Shown here: in pieces, positions 42,427 through 49,522 of the stretch | Layout of the letters: the number at the start of each line of letters is the position of its first letter | Numbering within the stretch: the stretch's first letter is position 1 | Assembly (NCBI GenBank): GCA_963745835.1 | Contig: CAVUZH010000016.1 | Coordinates: 224,001 to 288,000, forward strand | Reading direction: 5' to 3' | Origin: an uncultured delta proteobacterium | GTDB taxonomy: Bacteria > Desulfobacterota > Binatia > UBA9968 | Length of the DNA: 64,000 nt | Notes under the pieces: model-generated | Databases searched by the model: none | Seen by the model: only the letters and a program-made list of their open reading frames with translations | Told to the model about the DNA's origin: nothing | Made by a program: the position numbers and the translations under genes

Positions 42427-43956
42427 ATGGCTACTGAGAAGCTGGCGGATATCGGCCTGATCGGCTTGGCAGTTATGGGCGAAAACCTGGCCCTAAACAT
42501 TGCGGATCACGGCTTTAGAGTCGCTGTCTACAATCGCACGATCCAGGTGATGAAAGGCTTCATTGCTGCCAACCCTGACACTCCGGGCGGCCTGATTGGA
42601 TGCGCGACGTTGCCTGAGCTGCTGGCGGCGATCAAGAAGCCGCGCAAGATCATCATTCTCGTTAAAGCGGGCCCAGCCGTCGATGCCGTGACGCGACAGC
42701 TCATGGATGACGGGCTGGAAAAGGACGACCTCGTAATCGATTGCGGCAACAGCCTCTGGACCGACACCATCCGGCGCGAGAAAGACTATGCCGGTCATTG
42801 TCGCTTCTTCGGCTCCGGAGTTTCCGGCGGGGAAATCGGCGCGCGCTTCGGCCCATCCTTGATGCCCGGCGGCGATGCGCAAGCATGGCAGCATCTCGAG
42901 CCGATCTGGAAAGCCATCGCCGCCAAAGTCGATCCCGAAACCGGCAAAGCGATTGAAACCGCCAGACCAGGCCAACCCGTAGTAGGTGGAATCCCTTGCA
43001 CCGCGTACATCGGCGAGAACGGCGCCGGCCATTATGTCAAAATGATCCACAACGGCATCGAGTACATCGACATGCAGTTGATCTCCGAGGCTTACTTTCT
43101 GATGCGCAATCTGCTTGACGCCGCGCCCGATCAGCTCGCGCAAACTTTCGCGCGTTGGAACGAAGGGGATCTCGATTCTTATCTTATCGAAATCACCGCA
43201 GACATTCTAAAGCAGCGCGATCCGCAGAAGCCGGATTCATTTCTCGTCGACCATATTCTCGATACCGCCCAGCAGAAAGGAACCGGTAAATGGACCAGCG
43301 TCAACGCCCTCGACATGGGAATTCCGGCCAATGCGATCGCCGAGGCGGTCTTCGCGCGCAATCTGAGCGCGCTTAAAGATGAGCGAGTGGAAGCATCCAA
43401 ACAATTAGTGGGCCCGGAATACAGCTATAGCGGCAACCGTGAGGAACTGATCGATTCGGTTCGCGATGCGCTCTACTGTTCGAAAATCTGCGCTTATGCG
43501 CAAGGCTTTCAGCTCATGCGCGCGGCCGAGAGCGAATACAAGTGGAAGTTCGATTTCGCCTCCATCGCCGCTATCTGGCGTGGCGGCTGCATCATTCGCG
43601 CGCGTTTCCTGCAAAAGATCACCGATGCGTATAAGCGCGAGCCGCGCCTGGTGAATTTGCTGCTCGACCCGTACTTCAAGGAGCAGATTCAGAAGACTCA
43701 GTCGCGCTGGCGTTCCGTGGTGGCCATAGCCGCGCAAGCGGGCATTGCCGTTCCCGCGTTCATGTCGGCGCTGGCGTATTACGATGGCTACCGATCGGCA
43801 CAGCTGCCGGCCAATTTACTCCAGGCGCAGCGAGATTATTTCGGCGCGCACACCTACGAACGCACCGATCAGCCGCGCGGCAGATTATTCCATTTGGACT
43901 GGCCGGCACCGGATCGGCCGGAACTTCCAATCGCGAATTCCGGCAAATCCGACTGA
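42427..43956 (+). CDS. gndA: NADP-dependent 6-phosphogluconate dehydrogenase (decarboxylating)
   Basis: [53 protein letters not shown]. Confidence 0.98.
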
Positions 43957-44046
43957 AGCATCAGTTACGAGATTCCTCGAAGCGATTGCGGTCTTAGGCG
44001 AACACGCCCCGAGTAGCTTTTTCTCAGCAGATTTGACAGAACTTGA

Positions 44047-44150
44047 CTGTTACATACCTGTTGCTGTTACATTAGGAGGCATTTTGGCACCCCCAGGAGG
44101 TTAATGTACGGTAATCGCCATGCTTATTACCTGGATTTCAGTTACATTAA
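44047..44150. promoter_or_regulatory. repeated GTTACAT motifs and inverted repeats upstream of the Rdh-like operon
   Basis: CTGTTACAT at 44047 and 44064, GTTACAT at 44141; TTAATGTA (44101-44108) / TACATTAA (44143-44150). Confidence 0.45.
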
Positions 44151-44188
44151 GAACGGCAGTTTGACAGCCAGGAGGTTCACGAACGACG

Positions 44189-44587
44189 ATGGCCATCCCC
44201 GGAGAAAAAGCAATTCAAATGGTGCGCAACGCGCATACGCAGGCAACGCAGTTGGACATCGCGGTTACGGCGGTAGTTGTTGATCAGAGTGGCCGAATGA
44301 TCGCGCTGGGCAGAATGGACCGGGCTCGTCCGATTACCGTAGAAATCGCCCTGAACAAGGCCTACACCGCCGCCAGTTTTCAGCAACCCACCAAGGAGCT
44401 CGCCGGAGTCGCCGGCCAAACATGGTTTCAGAGCCTGGTCGTGTCAAGCAACGGACGCATCATGCCGGGGGCGGGCGCGCTGCCAATTGTTGAAGGCGGC
44501 GCGGTTGTCGGCGCGGTGGCGGTGGCCGGCGGCACCGAAGATCAGGACCAACGCTGCGCTGAAGTGGCGTTGGCGTCGTATGCTTAA
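44189..44587 (+). CDS. GlcG/HbpS-family (DUF336) heme-binding protein
   Basis: AVVVDQSG...RMD, IALNKAYTAASF, GALPI...VVGAVAVAGG.EDQD..CA; AGGAGG RBS. Confidence 0.92.
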   Translation: MAIPGEKAIQMVRNAHTQATQLDIAVTAVVVDQSGRMIALGRMDRARPITVEIALNKAYTAASFQQPTKELAGVAGQTWFQSLVVSSNGRIMPGAGALPIVEGGAVVGAVAVAGGTEDQDQRCAEVALASYA

Positions 44588-44672
44588 TCAAGGATGAGTT
44601 ATGAGAGCTGAAACCTGAAAAGGATTACTCCCGCTTTCCGTTTTCCGCTTTCCTAATTAAGGAGAAACTCGC

Positions 44673-45995
44673 ATGGCAGTGACTTTAGGGAAAACAACCG
44701 AATCAAACCAAAGCGCACACACTAAAGCAGACACCCCCCCGCCACCCTACCTCGGCCGCTCGGTCCGCATCGTTGGACCGGTGGTAAATGTCGACATGAA
44801 TCAGTCGCCGCATCCGAAAAATCAGCGCGGAGAATTGGGCAAGCCTCTTTTCAACTGGTATCACAACACCGTCTCCAAGGATCCTCTGACCCGGGTTTCG
44901 GCGCCAAACCATTTTGCCGACCGTCGCCATTTTCTCAGCACCATCATCAATCAGGCCACCAAGGGCAAGGTCAATCCGAGAAAAATAGAGGTGCCGGATG
45001 CGGCGGCGATGTCGCGCCACATCAAAGCGGTCGCGCATTACATGGGCGCCGACGTTGTCGCAGTTGCCCAAGCGCATCCATCCTTCCTGTACGCCGGCAG
45101 CCGCTATGTTCAAGACGGCACCGCAGAGGACGCCTATCAGGAAACATCGCCGACGGACCTTGTGAAGAAATTCCCCTACATCATCGTCGCCACCACTGCC
45201 TGGGATTACAACAAGCTTCAGGCGCATCGTCACCTGATCGGCGATGCCGCGTATCACGTCTCGCAAATCAAAGGCAACATGATTCTGAAGGCCCTGGAGG
45301 GCTACATCAAAGAACTGGGCTATACGGCGTTGCGCGGCGTCTGTACGCCGCAGGCCGCCGGCGTCGCTTCGGGAGTCGGCGAACTCGGGAGAAACGGGCT
45401 GGTCATCAACAAGACTTACGGGGCGCGCATCCACATGCCCGATCCGATCATGACCGACCTTCCTCTGGTGGCGGATCAGCCGGTCGATAATGCCGTCGAA
45501 GATTTTTGCAAGATTTGCCGGAAATGCGCTAACACTTGTCCCACCAACAGCATTCCGTTCGGCGATAAGGTCGTTCATAACGGTATCGAGAAATACAAGA
45601 TTAACTGGCTCACCTGCTACAAGTTGCGGCCGTATGTGCACGATTACTGGGGCAGCTGTCTGACCTGCGCCACGGTCTGCCCGTTTACCAAACCCAATGT
45701 CTGGTGGCACAGCCTCGCTACATGGTCTTTGCGCACCTGCCCGATCCCGGCGCGGCCCGCGCTAGTCCACGCGTTGAAATGGATCGATGACCGCTTCTGG
45801 GGAGTTGCGCGTAATAATCGCGTGCGCTGGCTCGGCTACGATTCCGGGATCAAGCCGGGAGATCAGGCGTGCACCGTCGCCGGCTGCAATGCATCGCATG
45901 AGGGAAAGGGGCCGGCCAAAGAAGTGGCCGGCAACGTCGGTTACTACGCGCCACTAAAAGAGAACACGAACCGGTTCGTCAAGCGGGATGCCTAG
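44673..45995 (+). CDS. reductive dehalogenase-like cobalamin/2x[4Fe-4S] enzyme, cytoplasmic
   Basis: IKAVAHYMGADVV, YIKELGYTA, SGVGELGRNGLVI, TDLPL, FCKICRKCANTCP and C-X11-CLTCATVCP; AAGGAG RBS; no N-terminal Tat signal. Confidence 0.85.
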   Translation: MAVTLGKTTESNQSAHTKADTPPPPYLGRSVRIVGPVVNVDMNQSPHPKNQRGELGKPLFNWYHNTVSKDPLTRVSAPNHFADRRHFLSTIINQATKGKVNPRKIEVPDAAAMSRHIKAVAHYMGADVVAVAQAHPSFLYAGSRYVQDGTAEDAYQETSPTDLVKKFPYIIVATTAWDYNKLQAHRHLIGDAAYHVSQIKGNMILKALEGYIKELGYTALRGVCTPQAAGVASGVGELGRNGLVINKTYGARIHMPDPIMTDLPLVADQPVDNAVEDFCKICRKCANTCPTNSIPFGDKVVHNGIEKYKINWLTCYKLRPYVHDYWGSCLTCATVCPFTKPNVWWHSLATWSLRTCPIPARPALVHALKWIDDRFWGVARNNRVRWLGYDSGIKPGDQACTVAGCNASHEGKGPAKEVAGNVGYYAPLKENTNRFVKRDA

Positions 45996-46621
45996 TGACC
46001 TTGCGATTGGGTCCGTTTAAACTGCCCGGGCTGAGACGAGATCCTCATAAGAACGATCCGTACTGGGATTTCTTTCTAAACACGCCGCCGGCGGATCTCG
46101 ACAACACAGTGACCGAGCTGATCCGCAATGCTCCGCCCGGCAATGTTTTTCCGACCAAGGCTGATATCCACACACCGGAGATTACCTCGAGCCATGTCAA
46201 AGGAATGGCTCACTACTTCGGCGCGGATCTGGTGGGTATCGTAAAATTACCGGCGCACAACCCATCGCCCTCGCCTCTCCCGCCAGCCGCGGATGGTAAG
46301 ATCGAAGAAGAATATCCCTTCGGAGTCATCTGCGTGGTTCGCGCTGAGTACGATCCACGCACCGCACCGGGCATTGGCGGGCAAGTGCCCGTGCAGAACG
46401 GGCTGTTCATTACCTTCGTACTGAGCGCGTGGATCAGGGAGCTCGGCTTTCGCGCCAAGGTCGCGCCCGAAACTAATGGCGAGAAGCTTGCTGCCGTGGC
46501 CGGTTTGGGCGAGATCAACGGGGACGGCCGATTAGTGACTCCTCAGTACGGCGCCGATGTTCATGTGATAAATATCATTCTGACAGATCTGCCACTCGCC
46601 GCAGACGGCACACAAATATGA
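45995..46621 (+). CDS. stand-alone reductive-dehalogenase B12-domain paralog lacking Fe-S motifs
   Basis: VKGMAHYFGADLVGI, WIRELGFRA, AGLGEI...LVTPQYG, ILTDLPLAAD then stop; TAGTG overlap with the upstream gene. Confidence 0.8.
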   Translation: MTLRLGPFKLPGLRRDPHKNDPYWDFFLNTPPADLDNTVTELIRNAPPGNVFPTKADIHTPEITSSHVKGMAHYFGADLVGIVKLPAHNPSPSPLPPAADGKIEEEYPFGVICVVRAEYDPRTAPGIGGQVPVQNGLFITFVLSAWIRELGFRAKVAPETNGEKLAAVAGLGEINGDGRLVTPQYGADVHVINIILTDLPLAADGTQI

Positions 46622-46626
46622 AAGCT

Positions 46627-46705
46627 GTTCCAGTCGTTCCAATAGTTCCACTCGTTTATGGGTTAGACAACCTGGAACAGTTGGAACGGTTGGAACAATT
46701 GGAAC
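46627..46705. repeat. inverted array of 9-bp tandem repeats
   Basis: GTTCCA at 46627, 46636 and 46645, then TGGAAC at 46673, 46682, 46691 and 46700. Confidence 0.85.
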
Positions 46706-46730
46706 GTATCTTCATGCGCAGCGAGAACTC

Positions 46731-47393
46731 ATGCCCTACGTGATCACCAGCCTGTGCACCAATGACGGAGCGTGCGTTGACGTCTGTCCGGTCGCCTGCA
46801 TTCATACGACACCGGGAGCGCCGCAATTCTACATCGACCCTGAAGTATGTATCGATTGCGAGCAGTGCGAAATCGTCTGCCCCGTGGACGCAATCTTCAA
46901 AGACATCGATATTCCGGCCGAACATCAAACTGCCATTGAGGTCAACGCCGCCTTCTTTCGCAAAAACAAGGCAGCCGCCGGCCCGGTTTCCTTCGAGACC
47001 GCTTGGCAGATGATCCGCGCCGCGCATGATTACGCGCAGATTATGGGAATGGCGGTGACAGCCACCGTGGTCGATGAGGCGGGCGGGCCGATTGCCGTGG
47101 GGCGAATGGATAGTGCCGAACCGATGACGGCAGAGCTGGCGTTTAATAAGGCTTATACCGCTGCCGCCTTTCACGTCGCCACCGCCGAACTGGCGCCACA
47201 AGCGCGGCAACCGCGATTTCACAGCCTGACGATGTCCCATCGCGGTCGCATCATGCCGGTGGGCGGAGCTATTCCGATCATTAACGGCGTGACCATCGTT
47301 GGCGCCGTCGGTGTGGCGGGTGGGAGCCGCCCGGAACAAGATATTCTCTGTTGCCGCGCCGCGCTCGCGGTCATCGAAGGCCACGGTCACTAA
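46731..47393 (+). CDS. dicluster ferredoxin fused to a GlcG/HbpS-like domain
   Basis: MPYVITSLCTNDGACVDVCPVACI...YIDPEVCIDCEQCEIVCP (FdxA-like), then VVDEAG...RMD, LAFNKAYTAAAF, VGAVGVAGG. Confidence 0.9.
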   Translation: MPYVITSLCTNDGACVDVCPVACIHTTPGAPQFYIDPEVCIDCEQCEIVCPVDAIFKDIDIPAEHQTAIEVNAAFFRKNKAAAGPVSFETAWQMIRAAHDYAQIMGMAVTATVVDEAGGPIAVGRMDSAEPMTAELAFNKAYTAAAFHVATAELAPQARQPRFHSLTMSHRGRIMPVGGAIPIINGVTIVGAVGVAGGSRPEQDILCCRAALAVIEGHGH

Positions 47394-47411
47394 ACACTAA
47401 CGAGCATCGCC

Positions 47412-47720
47412 ATGTACCTCGTTCAACTACTCTTACCGCTGTACGATAATTTGAACGCCCGATTTCCGCCTGAGGCCTTCGATTGTGTGCGGCAAGAGCT
47501 AACCGAGCATTTCGGTGGGGTCACGGCTTTTCTGCGTTCACCAGCTCAAGGGTTCTGGCGGATAGCCGAGAACGCCATCAATCGCGATGAGGTGGTTATC
47601 TTTGAAGTGATGACCGATGAACTAAACCGGCGGTGGTGGGATGGATACCGAGCAGATCTGGAACAGCGCTTCAGGCAAATCGAACTGGTGATCCGGGCAA
47701 GCTCGATCGAGAGGCTCTAA
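47412..47720 (+). CDS. small hypothetical protein (DUF3574-like)
   Basis: QLLLPL...FGGVTAF.RSPAQG.W...FRQ pattern. Confidence 0.7.
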   Translation: MYLVQLLLPLYDNLNARFPPEAFDCVRQELTEHFGGVTAFLRSPAQGFWRIAENAINRDEVVIFEVMTDELNRRWWDGYRADLEQRFRQIELVIRASSIERL

Positions 47721-47866
47721 CGACAATAGTGAGCTGGTACATCGTACTCGAATCTCAGAAACGCTTTTCGCCTCTTTGTCGCTTTCTTGTCGGCCTCTTC
47801 TCCATCAAGGTTCGGGCCGGTTCTTTTTCTCTTCTTTCCTCGCGTGTCTCTGCCCCTTGCCATCAT
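47717..47866 (-). CDS. small Lys/Arg-rich protein (49 aa, possibly frameshifted)
   Basis: GGAG RBS then MMARGRDTRGKKRKR...; below the ORF-track cutoff. Confidence 0.4.
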   Translation of the reverse strand: MMARGRDTRGKKRKRTGPNLDGEEADKKATKRRKAFLRFEYDVPAHYCR

Positions 47867-48058
47867 GATCTCCGTCACGCTGCCGAACTGTCACCGCAAC
47901 CCACCTCGAACTCGGGTAAGTTAGACTCCAGCTGCAACGTACCGTGCCGCTATCCGCTTGATTTAAATCGATAGCAGCCGATCAAAAAACGACCGGTAGC
48001 GCCGCAACGCCCAGACAACCTCTTGGTTCGGCATCGAAGACCGTTTAGTATCGTCTGC

Positions 48059-49522
48059 ATGAAAGAAATTCGTTTTGTCGATACGACACTGCGCGACGGC
48101 CAGCAAAGCCTTTGGGCATATGGCATGCGCACAGGAATGATTGTTCCGATCGCCGAGCAGATCGATAATGCCGGCTTCGAGGCGATCGAGCTCGGCGGTC
48201 CCGTGGAGCTGCCGAAGTGCGTCCGGGAGCTGCGCGAAGATCCCTGGGAGCGTTACCGGCTGGTTTTAGCTCGCATCAAGAAAACCCCGCTTCGAGTCAT
48301 TCACGGCACTCGCAGCGGCTTCGCCATTTACCCGCATGCCATTCATCAACTCTACGACCGCTGCATGGCGGATATCGGGATTAAGCAGGTGCGCATCTCC
48401 GATTCATGGAATGACCCGGCCGATTGGCAGTGGCGGGTGAAACAAGCGCGGGCCGCGGGGCTCGAACCGATCATCAATTTGATCTATACGATTTCGCCGC
48501 GGCACACGGATGAATACTATGCGCAAAAAACCCGCGAAGCGCTGAAACTGAACGTGTTCAGGGTGTGTTTGAAAGATCCCGGCGGAATCCTTACACCGGA
48601 GCGCACTCGCACTCTGGCGCGGGCGGTTCTCCAAAGCGCGAACGGCACCATCGCGGAGTTACACACGCACTGTACCACGGGACTGGGCTCTCTCTGTTGT
48701 CTGGAAGCGATCCAGGCGGGTATGACATCGATTAACACCGCAATCCCTCCGCTGGCCGACGGTTCTTCGAACCCGTCAATTTTCAACGTTGCCAAAAACG
48801 CTAAGGCGATGGGCTTTGCGCCGGTGATCGACGAAGACCCTATTCGCCCAGTGGCGGCTCATTTCACGGCAATCGCCAAACGAGAGAAATTGACTATCGG
48901 TAAGCCGCCGGAATATGACTACGCTCAATACATCCACCAAATTCCCGGCGGCATGATTTCAAATCTGCGTCACCAGCTAGGTCGCGTCGGGATGGAAGAC
49001 AAACTCGAGCGAACCCTCGATGAAGCGGCTCAGGTGCGGGCAGAATTTGGCTATCCGATCATGGTCACGCCCTTGTCCCAGTTCGTCGGCAGCCAAGCCG
49101 CCATCAATGTAATCGTTGGCGAGCGTTACAAGGAAGTGACGGATCAGACCATCGAGTACGCCTTGGGAGTCTGGGGAAAAGAAGGCGGCGCAATGATGGA
49201 CCCCGCCGTAAAGGACAAAATTCTCAGCCGCCGACGCGCCATGGAAATCGCCAGACGTGAACCGCCGCAGATGCCGCTACAAGAGTTGCGGCGAAAATTC
49301 GGCGGATCAAGCGTATCCGATGAGGAAATTTTGTTGCGCTTTTTCACCAGCAAGGAAGATGTCGATTCTATGCGCGCGGCCGGGCCTGCCCGGCTTTACG
49401 CCAATGGGGGAAATCCGCTATTGCACCTGCTCGAAGAGCTTACGAGAACAACCAATCGCTCCAGCATATCGGTTCAACGCGGCGACTTGTCGGTGCGTTT
49501 ACATAGGAACTCGGCATTATAG
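48059..49522 (+). CDS. pyruvate/oxaloacetate carboxyltransferase (PycB/OadA-like, no biotin domain)
   Basis: DTTLRDGQQSL, LKDPGG, HTHCTTG, HQIPGGMISNL, GYPIMVTPLSQFVG. Confidence 0.9.
   Translation: MKEIRFVDTTLRDGQQSLWAYGMRTGMIVPIAEQIDNAGFEAIELGGPVELPKCVRELREDPWERYRLVLARIKKTPLRVIHGTRSGFAIYPHAIHQLYDRCMADIGIKQVRISDSWNDPADWQWRVKQARAAGLEPIINLIYTISPRHTDEYYAQKTREALKLNVFRVCLKDPGGILTPERTRTLARAVLQSANGTIAELHTHCTTGLGSLCCLEAIQAGMTSINTAIPPLADGSSNPSIFNVAKNAKAMGFAPVIDEDPIRPVAAHFTAIAKREKLTIGKPPEYDYAQYIHQIPGGMISNLRHQLGRVGMEDKLERTLDEAAQVRAEFGYPIMVTPLSQFVGSQAAINVIVGERYKEVTDQTIEYALGVWGKEGGAMMDPAVKDKILSRRRAMEIARREPPQMPLQELRRKFGGSSVSDEEILLRFFTSKEDVDSMRAAGPARLYANGGNPLLHLLEELTRTTNRSSISVQRGDLSVRLHRNSAL

Follow-up and report, generated by a model that had tools for sequence, protein, structure and literature searches.

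What does a reductive-dehalogenase-type enzyme do in the company of two GlcG proteins? The question is raised by a cluster of four genes at positions 44189–47393 of a 64,000-nt stretch of DNA (hereafter the window; positions 224,001 to 288,000 of contig CAVUZH010000016.1, assembly GCA_963745835.1) from an uncultured delta proteobacterium of the lineage Binatia. The four adjacent, co-oriented + strand open reading frames (ORFs) encode a free GlcG/HbpS-like (DUF336) protein (gene A), a reductive-dehalogenase (Rdh)-like enzyme (gene B), a half-domain protein (gene C) and a ferredoxin–GlcG fusion (gene D). An earlier note, written from the sequence letters, had described this content and read it as a third architecture beside the known respiratory and catabolic RdhA enzymes; the gene content and positions agree with the ORF list of the window and with matches to PF03928, TIGR02486 and Fer4 profiles. 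The analysis below indicates that this cassette is real, strongly constrained and apparently undescribed, and we rate at slightly better than even (roughly 0.55) the chance that it would work as one cytoplasmic, ferredoxin-driven corrinoid/iron–sulfur (Fe–S) reductase system of the RdhA superfamily.

That the genes belong together is seen from other genomes. A search of one genome per species yielded 78 related loci, which were scored by tblastn with the window proteins as queries; five of them stop at a contig edge, leaving 73 in which C was testable. C lies directly after B in 71 of the 73 under a strict rule, or in 72 counting a broken C (in locus L027:7290-7848, a metagenome-assembled genome (MAG), C is spread over three reading frames, by assembly error or as a pseudogene), so that L050 is the sole testable locus without C after B. 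Of 70 loci testable for D, 68 have it after C, the exceptions being L031 and L050, the latter of which carries D upstream of B. A was testable in 72 loci and is found at most 1.2 kb upstream of B in 54 of them, all 54 being among the 58 in which B shares 60% identity or more with that of the window. Thus, the co-occurrence that the earlier note had put forward as a check was found, with B-C-D present in 67 and the full A-B-C-D set in 48 of the 78 loci. The median B–C spacing across loci is 6 nt, compared with a 1-nt overlap in the window. Two Dehalococcoidia-labelled MAGs (L065:5899-8706 and L066) carry two tandem B copies, followed by one C and D.

By submitter label, these loci span nine phyla, the 67 B-C-D loci being assigned to Binatota (19), Chloroflexota (16), Thermodesulfobacteriota (6), Rokuibacteriota (5), Myxococcota (4), Acidobacteriota (2) and Methylomirabilota, Verrucomicrobiota and Pseudomonadota (1 each), with 12 unlabelled. 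Among loci with B at least 70% identical, B identity across phyla is 70–97%, and A identity is 85–100% in 48 of the 49 listed (76% in L051); three loci with B near 60% have A at 64–69%. Flanking genes are common only to the closest relatives (L001, L002, L040, L044 and L064), and ORF clustering over the 78 loci revealed no neighbour shared beyond A–D. Compared with ten loci, synonymous divergence (dS) was 1.1–2.9 for all four genes, i.e., saturated, while the ratio of nonsynonymous to synonymous divergence (dN/dS) was 0.02–0.055 for A, 0.06–0.15 for B, 0.08–0.20 for C and 0.05–0.15 for D, making A the most constrained of the four. All four genes are therefore under purifying selection: given saturated dS and low dN/dS, their similarity reflects constraint, and C is no decaying pseudogene. 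Recent horizontal transfer as the source of the high identity is ruled out by the saturated synonymous sites.

Within any lineage the cassette is rare and patchy. Of 301 genomes sampled from the window's phylum, two matched B (E ≤ 1e-60), and the second of these holds sister-clade paralogues only. Database relatives of B form 676 clusters; among the 120 matches listed, identity is 70–96%, most derive from soil metagenomes, and those bearing a name are almost always called 'reductive dehalogenase'.

B (44673–45995, + strand; 440 amino acids (aa)) is preceded by an A–B spacer (44588–44672, + strand) with an AAGGAG ribosome-binding site 8 nt 5′ of its ATG. It scores 141.4 bits against the RDH model TIGR02486 (137.7 bits in the genome search), under the cut-off of 160.35, and 51 bits against the QueG model TIGR00276, whose cut-off is 200. 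In line with the earlier note, a leader for twin-arginine translocation (Tat) is missing, there being by sequence no twin-arginine (RR) motif in the B N-terminus. An exhaustive HMMER search of 1.84 billion representatives returned 2067 hits separated by an identity gap, with family members at 48% or above and all others at 38% or below. A quick IQ-TREE phylogeny (LG+G4, with support from the Shimodaira–Hasegawa-like approximate likelihood-ratio test (SH-aLRT) only) was computed on 105 rows. These comprised 17 family members out of 44 that had been aligned, 86 hits with a length of 340 aa or more (P0149 omitted) and two proteins of the window's genome, its short Rdh-like paralogue and its QueG, the latter serving as outgroup. 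The B family formed a single clade (SH-aLRT 100, stem 0.67), whose sister is P0128 (100), followed by P0141 plus P0145 (82), all of them cytosolic in type. P0263, an NpRdhA homologue (654 bits to 4ras), belongs to a different clade. The placement test suggested at the outset thus set B outside QueG and outside the NpRdhA clade.

A structural model of B (m064cea494404) is good over about residues 100–370 and aligned best, by VIA-align, with NpRdhA residues 269–626 (Z 28.9, 325 residues, root-mean-square deviation (rmsd) 3.4), followed by the 8q4h enzyme (Z 28.1), PceA (Z 26.5) and QueG (Z 14.3). Foldseek agrees, and sequence identity to NpRdhA is 22–24%. Structure alignment and motifs together indicate that B has the RdhA-type layout, a nitroreductase-like corrinoid core followed by a two-cluster ferredoxin-like domain. 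The window's genome encodes a second Rdh-like protein (L086:7142-8047; 301 aa, TIGR02486 118.5 bits, Fer4_7), which sits on a long tree branch, has neither C-like nor GlcG neighbours and adjoins a release-factor-like gene and a sigma/anti-sigma pair.

The active site of B appears to combine familiar and unfamiliar elements. Its eight Fe–S cysteines (CxxCxxCxxxCP and C...CxxCxxxCP) are invariant in 44 B-family sequences, as are A184-H185-R186-H187, D191, Y194 and R319, and H254 is nearly so. H254 aligns with PceA R305 and NpRdhA K488, the position of the basic partner residue (corroborated for NpRdhA by the K488Q entry 6zy0), and R319 aligns with NpRdhA R552. The catalytic tyrosine, which we take to be Y246 in PceA and Y426 in NpRdhA, aligns with Q198, in a column that varies among Q, L, A and S, on which two alignments agree (MAFFT with eleven other Rdh-type sequences, and the family profile against PDB chains). 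The invariant Y194 lies four residues before Q198 on one helix, beside the AHRH motif. Sister protein P0128 likewise lacks the canonical tyrosine. Judged from these alignments, the B family retains the RdhA scaffold with a predicted catalytic constellation that is re-arranged and His-rich. Since the tyrosine proton donor is displaced and the motif is rich in histidine, the substrate and leaving group are probably unlike those of the ortho-halophenols turned over by characterised catabolic enzymes. The doubt about an organohalide substrate voiced in the earlier note thereby gains a concrete basis.

C (45995–46621, + strand; 208 aa) starts at a GTG that overlaps the TAG stop of B by one base. 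It matches no Pfam family, contains no Cys/Fe–S motifs and is 29% identical to B residues 82–268 (E 1e-18), stopping where the Fe–S domain of B starts, as fits its description in the earlier note as a paralogue limited to the B12 domain. The AHRH..Y segment is absent from C, while its own family keeps D21, W24, F27, D34, N37, G126, Q130 and E149 invariant; relatives in the Atlas are named 'hypothetical protein' only. A model of C (m9b8f50e49311; predicted local distance difference test (pLDDT) score 80) has the RdhA core fold by Foldseek, and its best VIA-align match is residues -3 to 222 of NpRdhA (6zxx_B; Z 16.0, 172 residues, rmsd 4.7), with 4ras_B residues 1–222 at Z 15.3. Matches to the PceA core (Z 13.7), the 8q4h enzyme (12.1) and QueG (11.3) are lower.

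NpRdhA itself, according to the available text of PMC10463259, contains a vestigial duplicate of its core that is free of cobalamin and mimics the monomer interface of the respiratory dimer, leaving NpRdhA monomeric. The accessible part of PMC12219181 gives the same account and adds a 'simplified cytosolic' RdhA type devoid of this domain. NpRdhA is also reported to be active in vivo when produced heterologously in Bacillus megaterium (PMC10463259). With C corresponding to the N-terminal part of NpRdhA and B to its residues 269–626, the models suggest that B and C together are a split version of the known catabolic RdhA architecture. Protein fusions are in keeping with this: P0141 (603 aa, from a neighbouring clade) joins an Fe–S-less half-domain to a complete Rdh unit that follows it, and P0139 (685 aa, likewise from a neighbouring clade) carries two complete Rdh units in one chain. 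Given the tiling on NpRdhA, these fusions and the 1-nt overlap, a B–C heterodimer would be the natural reading.

A second genome from the same family as that of the window (G291) throws light on how the cassette may have been assembled. It encodes five sister-clade paralogues of B (41–43% identical), two of them in tandem units composed of an Rdh-like gene, a gene for an 82-aa FdxA-type ferredoxin and one for a solute-binding protein (L087, G291:C61:3000-15000). No C-like or GlcG gene stands beside any of the five (L087–L090). As the sister clade (40–43% identity to B) pairs with a bare FdxA-type ferredoxin, such pairing predates the cassette, and C and GlcG are additions. A EutA-like gene (PF06277, E 3.8e-117) and a cupin gene were seen just upstream of the tandem units in L087.

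The GlcG parts reside in A (44189–44587, + strand; 132 aa) and D (46731–47393, + strand; 220 aa). Both match PF03928 (HbpS-like; cut-off 25), A with 98.3 bits and D with 104.4 bits over residues 87–213, and the GlcG domain of D shares 55% identity with A. The N-terminus of D matches Fer4 families over residues 1–57 and, over residues 1–85, the FdxA_Actino model NF045480 (74.7 bits, E 5.9e-21; model cut-off 125). Cysteines 9, 15, 19, 23, 40, 43, 46 and 50 are invariant in the D family, and a pattern of three plus four cysteines is what we assume to mark an FdxA-type 7Fe ferredoxin. Relatives of D form 930 clusters at E ≤ 1e-10, and Fer4 and PF03928 are both present in all 120 matches listed; automatic annotation calls them 'ferredoxin', 'heme-binding protein' or, in error, 'ferredoxin-NADP+ reductase'.

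The solved chains closest to A are OrfY (2a2l, E 5e-19), NahX (9jth), 4nkp, PduO-C (5cx7), EfgA and HbpS; the NahX literature was uninformative about what DUF336 does. PduO-C forms an octamer that binds heme through bis-His18 ligation, and DUF336 proteins bind heme, with HbpS binding aquo-cobalamin too (PMC4923194, available text). PduO-C Arg22 aligns with Arg13 of A, and the pocket residue Val25 with His16. The A family conserves this histidine; D has no conserved histidine at the equivalent position of its GlcG domain. Tetrapyrrole binding by the GlcG parts would be plausible. The window's genome has CobS, while CbiC was not found in it (the assembly being rated 97% complete), a combination that fits corrinoid salvage.

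Taken together, the evidence suggests a working scheme for the cassette. Catalysis would fall to B, which is predicted to bind cobalamin and two [4Fe-4S] clusters, and C would be a non-catalytic paralogue of the B core that may pack on B at the position of the NpRdhA vestigial domain or of the second PceA monomer. The ferredoxin of D would be kept reduced by a housekeeping ferredoxin reductase whose gene lies elsewhere, and would pass low-potential electrons to the outer cluster of B and from there to cobalt, for a two-electron reduction of the cob(I)alamin type. A and the GlcG domain of D probably assemble together into an oligomer of the DUF336 type, by which the ferredoxin would be tethered. 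In what is the least certain step, this oligomer most likely holds a tetrapyrrole, which might be a salvaged corrinoid that loads or re-reduces B, or a redox-active heme.

Several observations weigh against this scheme. The B model is moderate (pLDDT 68) and poor at residues 1–18, 43–66 and 377–440, and we infer cofactor binding from its fold and motifs. The variable column at Q198 makes even the class of reaction uncertain. In A, Ile9 stands where PduO-C has its heme ligand His18, so this ligand is not kept. A itself occurs in none of the 14 loci with B at 49–57% identity (MAGs labelled Dehalococcoidia/Chloroflexota, with B-C-D only) and hence is not essential to the core system. Neither a reductase, a regulator, a transporter nor a B12 riboswitch was linked to the cassette among neighbouring ORFs, in the 78-locus clustering or by Rfam. 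Support from RNA data is likewise qualified. Thirteen soil-metatranscriptome runs contain 19–31% of the cassette's sampled 31-letter words, and 18 of 21 listed runs (11 studies) contain part of the stretch. RNA-library contigs of at least 90% identity from four runs of four studies cover all four genes, and these contigs come from close relatives, with DNA carry-over possible. One of them (2012 nt) runs from the end of A through B into C and a second spans the B–C junction, though a contig is no proof of a single transcript. A soil RNA-library contig retains A and B with the A–B spacer swapped for 197 other letters.

The best-surviving alternative, somewhat unlikely in our estimate, is an ordinary catabolic dehalogenase for natural soil organohalides (e.g., halogenated phenolics), which would merely be split and served by another ferredoxin, with GlcG dispensable. 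The closest solved structures are indeed dehalogenases (Z 28.9, 28.1 and 26.5), the nearest relatives are all of the cytosolic type, and basic H254 occupies the position of PceA R305/NpRdhA K488 just as R319 occupies that of NpRdhA R552. A patchy distribution (2 of 301 genomes in the phylum) would likewise suit an accessory catabolic trait. This account has to contend, however, with the canonical tyrosine column being variable (Q, L, A, S) and with a score below the curated RDH cut-off (141.4 vs 160.35). The families of rdhA diversify fast, unlike the cassette with its very high cross-phylum conservation and fixed composition. Genes or regulators of aromatic degradation were not consistently linked, either across the 78 loci or in 12 diverse loci, and A, the most constrained gene, would be an odd dispensable accessory. 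The cassette may nevertheless dehalogenate some natural organohalide.

Going further than the scheme above, the cassette might represent a fourth functional branch of the RdhA/QueG enzymes, a B12 reductase for a non-halogenated or unprecedented substrate in which DUF336 acts as corrinoid holder and ferredoxin-coupled reductive activator; we regard this as unlikely. To our knowledge, only two types of reaction are established in the B12/Fe–S superfamily, dehalogenation and epoxyqueuosine reduction. If this were true, DUF336 would for the first time have a defined role in B12 enzymology, which would also account for the presence of the domain beside PduO and the dha system.

Alternatively, the GlcG parts could be heme redox modules in a PduO-C-like octamer that relay electrons from ferredoxin to B or shield cob(I) and Fe–S clusters from oxygen, with no handling of corrinoid. 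PduO-C does form an octamer that binds redox-active heme (PMC4923194, available text), its heme propionate contact Arg22 has a counterpart in A Arg13, with A His16 at the pocket position of Val25, and the fusion in D puts a GlcG domain beside an electron carrier. Set against these points are the replacement of ligand His18 by Ile9 in A, the lack of conservation of the His16 histidine in the GlcG domain of D, and the bare ferredoxin of the sister clade, which shows an extra relay to be unneeded for electron delivery. We consider a purely heme-based role improbable.

Much less probable still is that B is a QueG-like enzyme for the modification of a nucleic acid or cofactor, serving repair or maturation instead of catabolism. 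Very strong conservation of a self-contained cassette in changing neighbourhoods would suit such a task, and QueG demonstrates that the fold can reduce non-halogenated substrates. That B is QueG itself is ruled out, as B scores 51 bits against the QueG model, the genome has a separate true QueG gene (398 bits) and the structural match is far lower (Z 14.3 vs 28.9); the same facts speak against a QueG-like function, as does a rare, patchy distribution that misfits a general housekeeping role. Finally, that the genes are mere neighbours with no joint function is barely credible, since the order and tight spacing of B-C-D are kept in 67 of 78 loci in distant lineages while all flanks change, B and C overlap, and fusions (P0141 and D itself) join the same parts.

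The spacer between C and D holds an intergenic hairpin (46627–46705, no strand assigned) built from 9-nt units, three copies of GTTCCANNN opposite four of TGGAACNNN. The RNA fold of 46615–46735 has -45.4 kcal/mol (z -5.09). The hairpin-unit pattern matches five times in the window (0.24 expected), and a three-unit pattern 152 times genome-wide, with no match for the reversed control; by its sequence, the hairpin is thus taken to be a copy of a dispersed repeat resembling repetitive extragenic palindromic (REP) elements. Related loci form C–D spacer hairpins from different short units (GTTCAANNN, TCAAAT/TCAGAT-type and CCATTATCC-type), and a fold with z ≤ -3 was found in 20 of 52 C–D spacers.

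Within ~5 kb of the cassette lie ORFs for gnd (6-phosphogluconate dehydrogenase), a deacetylase-like protein, a solute-binding protein and a carboxylase subunit; no flavin reductase is among the ORFs in this range. The interval 44189–47393 holds no + strand ORF of at least 60 aa besides A–D that could encode an RdhB-type anchor, a negative obtained from the ORF list with no dedicated RdhB search or transmembrane predictor run. Directly 3′ of D, a 102-aa ORF (47412–47720) matches no Pfam or NCBIfam model and is present only in the closest relatives (L001, L002 and L064), which places it outside the conserved cassette. No cobalamin riboswitch or other Rfam family matched at gathering score anywhere in the 64-kb window, and a promoter/terminator scan of 43800–48100 was uninformative (4 and 5 consensus sites vs 1.9 and 4.1 expected). 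Five of 12 diverse loci (L014, L018, L059, L071 and L074) have Amidohydro_2 (PF04909) genes at most ~5 kb from the cassette, maybe by chance given their abundance, with 122 matches in the 7.28-Mb genome of the window; as a clue to the substrate they are weak at best.

Whichever chemistry applies, the cassette offers a handle on several questions. Abundant in soil data, with a re-arranged active site and fixed partners, the family is a well-defined target for a new reaction. Its separate vestigial protein is a natural experiment on why catabolic enzymes need that domain, and the cassette as a whole is one on the function, long unclear, of the DUF336/GlcG proteins found alongside cobalamin enzymes. 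Should B prove to be a dehalogenase, the soil lineages labelled Binatia, Rokubacteria and Chloroflexota, which are widespread and uncultured, would join those capable of reductive dehalogenation. We found no literature pairing reductive dehalogenases with DUF336, GlcG or HbpS among the papers listed for the sources covered (subscription journals and supplements lying outside them), and none pairing them with Binatia, work on Binatota dehalogenases naming only dcmA and dhaA. The split vestigial form is not described in the vestigial-domain accounts within the available text of PMC10463259 and PMC12219181.

How does the cassette compare with known systems? The catabolic RdhAs (NpRdhA 4RAS/6ZY1, JtRdhA and BhbA) come closest, sharing the lack of a Tat signal, the corrinoid core with two [4Fe-4S] clusters (predicted for B), a vestigial, cobalamin-free core copy and the supply of electrons via ferredoxin (likely here too). 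Unlike the N-terminal fusion of the NpRdhA type, the vestigial domain is a separate gene after the enzyme gene; B belongs to another clade than NpRdhA, and its canonical tyrosine column does not hold tyrosine. In further contrast to catabolic RdhAs, the cassette has no PDOR reductase domain, its FdxA-type ferredoxin is fused to GlcG, and there is an extra GlcG gene. The NpRdhA gene cluster includes two ferredoxins (PMC10463259, available text), which together with the plain ferredoxin of the sister clade means that ferredoxin supply is not new. The proposal of a third architecture hence survives in part: with C resembling NpRdhA 1–222 (Z 16.0) and B resembling 269–626 (Z 28.9), the models point to a split known catabolic layout, whereas the GlcG fusion, the second GlcG and the tyrosine position do set the cassette apart from the known form. 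Respiratory RdhA/RdhB systems (PceA 4UQU; membrane complex 8Q4H) have fold and Fe–S motifs in common with B (Z 26–28), but B has no Tat motif and no anchor gene was seen adjacent to it; PceA is a homodimer, and in the cassette the dead paralogue C would replace the partner. The 'simplified cytosolic' RdhA-like proteins of Desulfobacterota/Chloroflexota resemble B in being ~400 aa long, with neither Tat signal nor fused vestigial domain, and the available text of PMC12219181 treats this type as having no such domain, whereas for B the next gene appears to supply it.

Looking beyond dehalogenases, QueG is, like B, a cytoplasmic B12/Fe–S reductase of the same superfamily, and its substrate is non-halogenated. 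Human MMACHC–MMADHC (9MRS), a B12-binding nitroreductase-like protein with a partner of the same fold, of which MMADHC itself is not known to hold B12, provides an analogy only, as its matches to the B and C models are weak (Z 6.5–7.3, in the range of generic nitroreductase matches). PduO-C (5CX7), OrfY (2A2L) and HbpS, tetrapyrrole-binding octamers, are of the same Pfam family as A and the GlcG part of D, and OrfY is presumably encoded in a dha (cobalamin-dependent dehydratase) context. PduO is likewise encoded with a cobalamin-dependent dehydratase system (PMC4923194, available text). Unlike in these three proteins, the DUF336 domain of the cassette shares a chain with a ferredoxin and accompanies an enzyme of the RdhA type.

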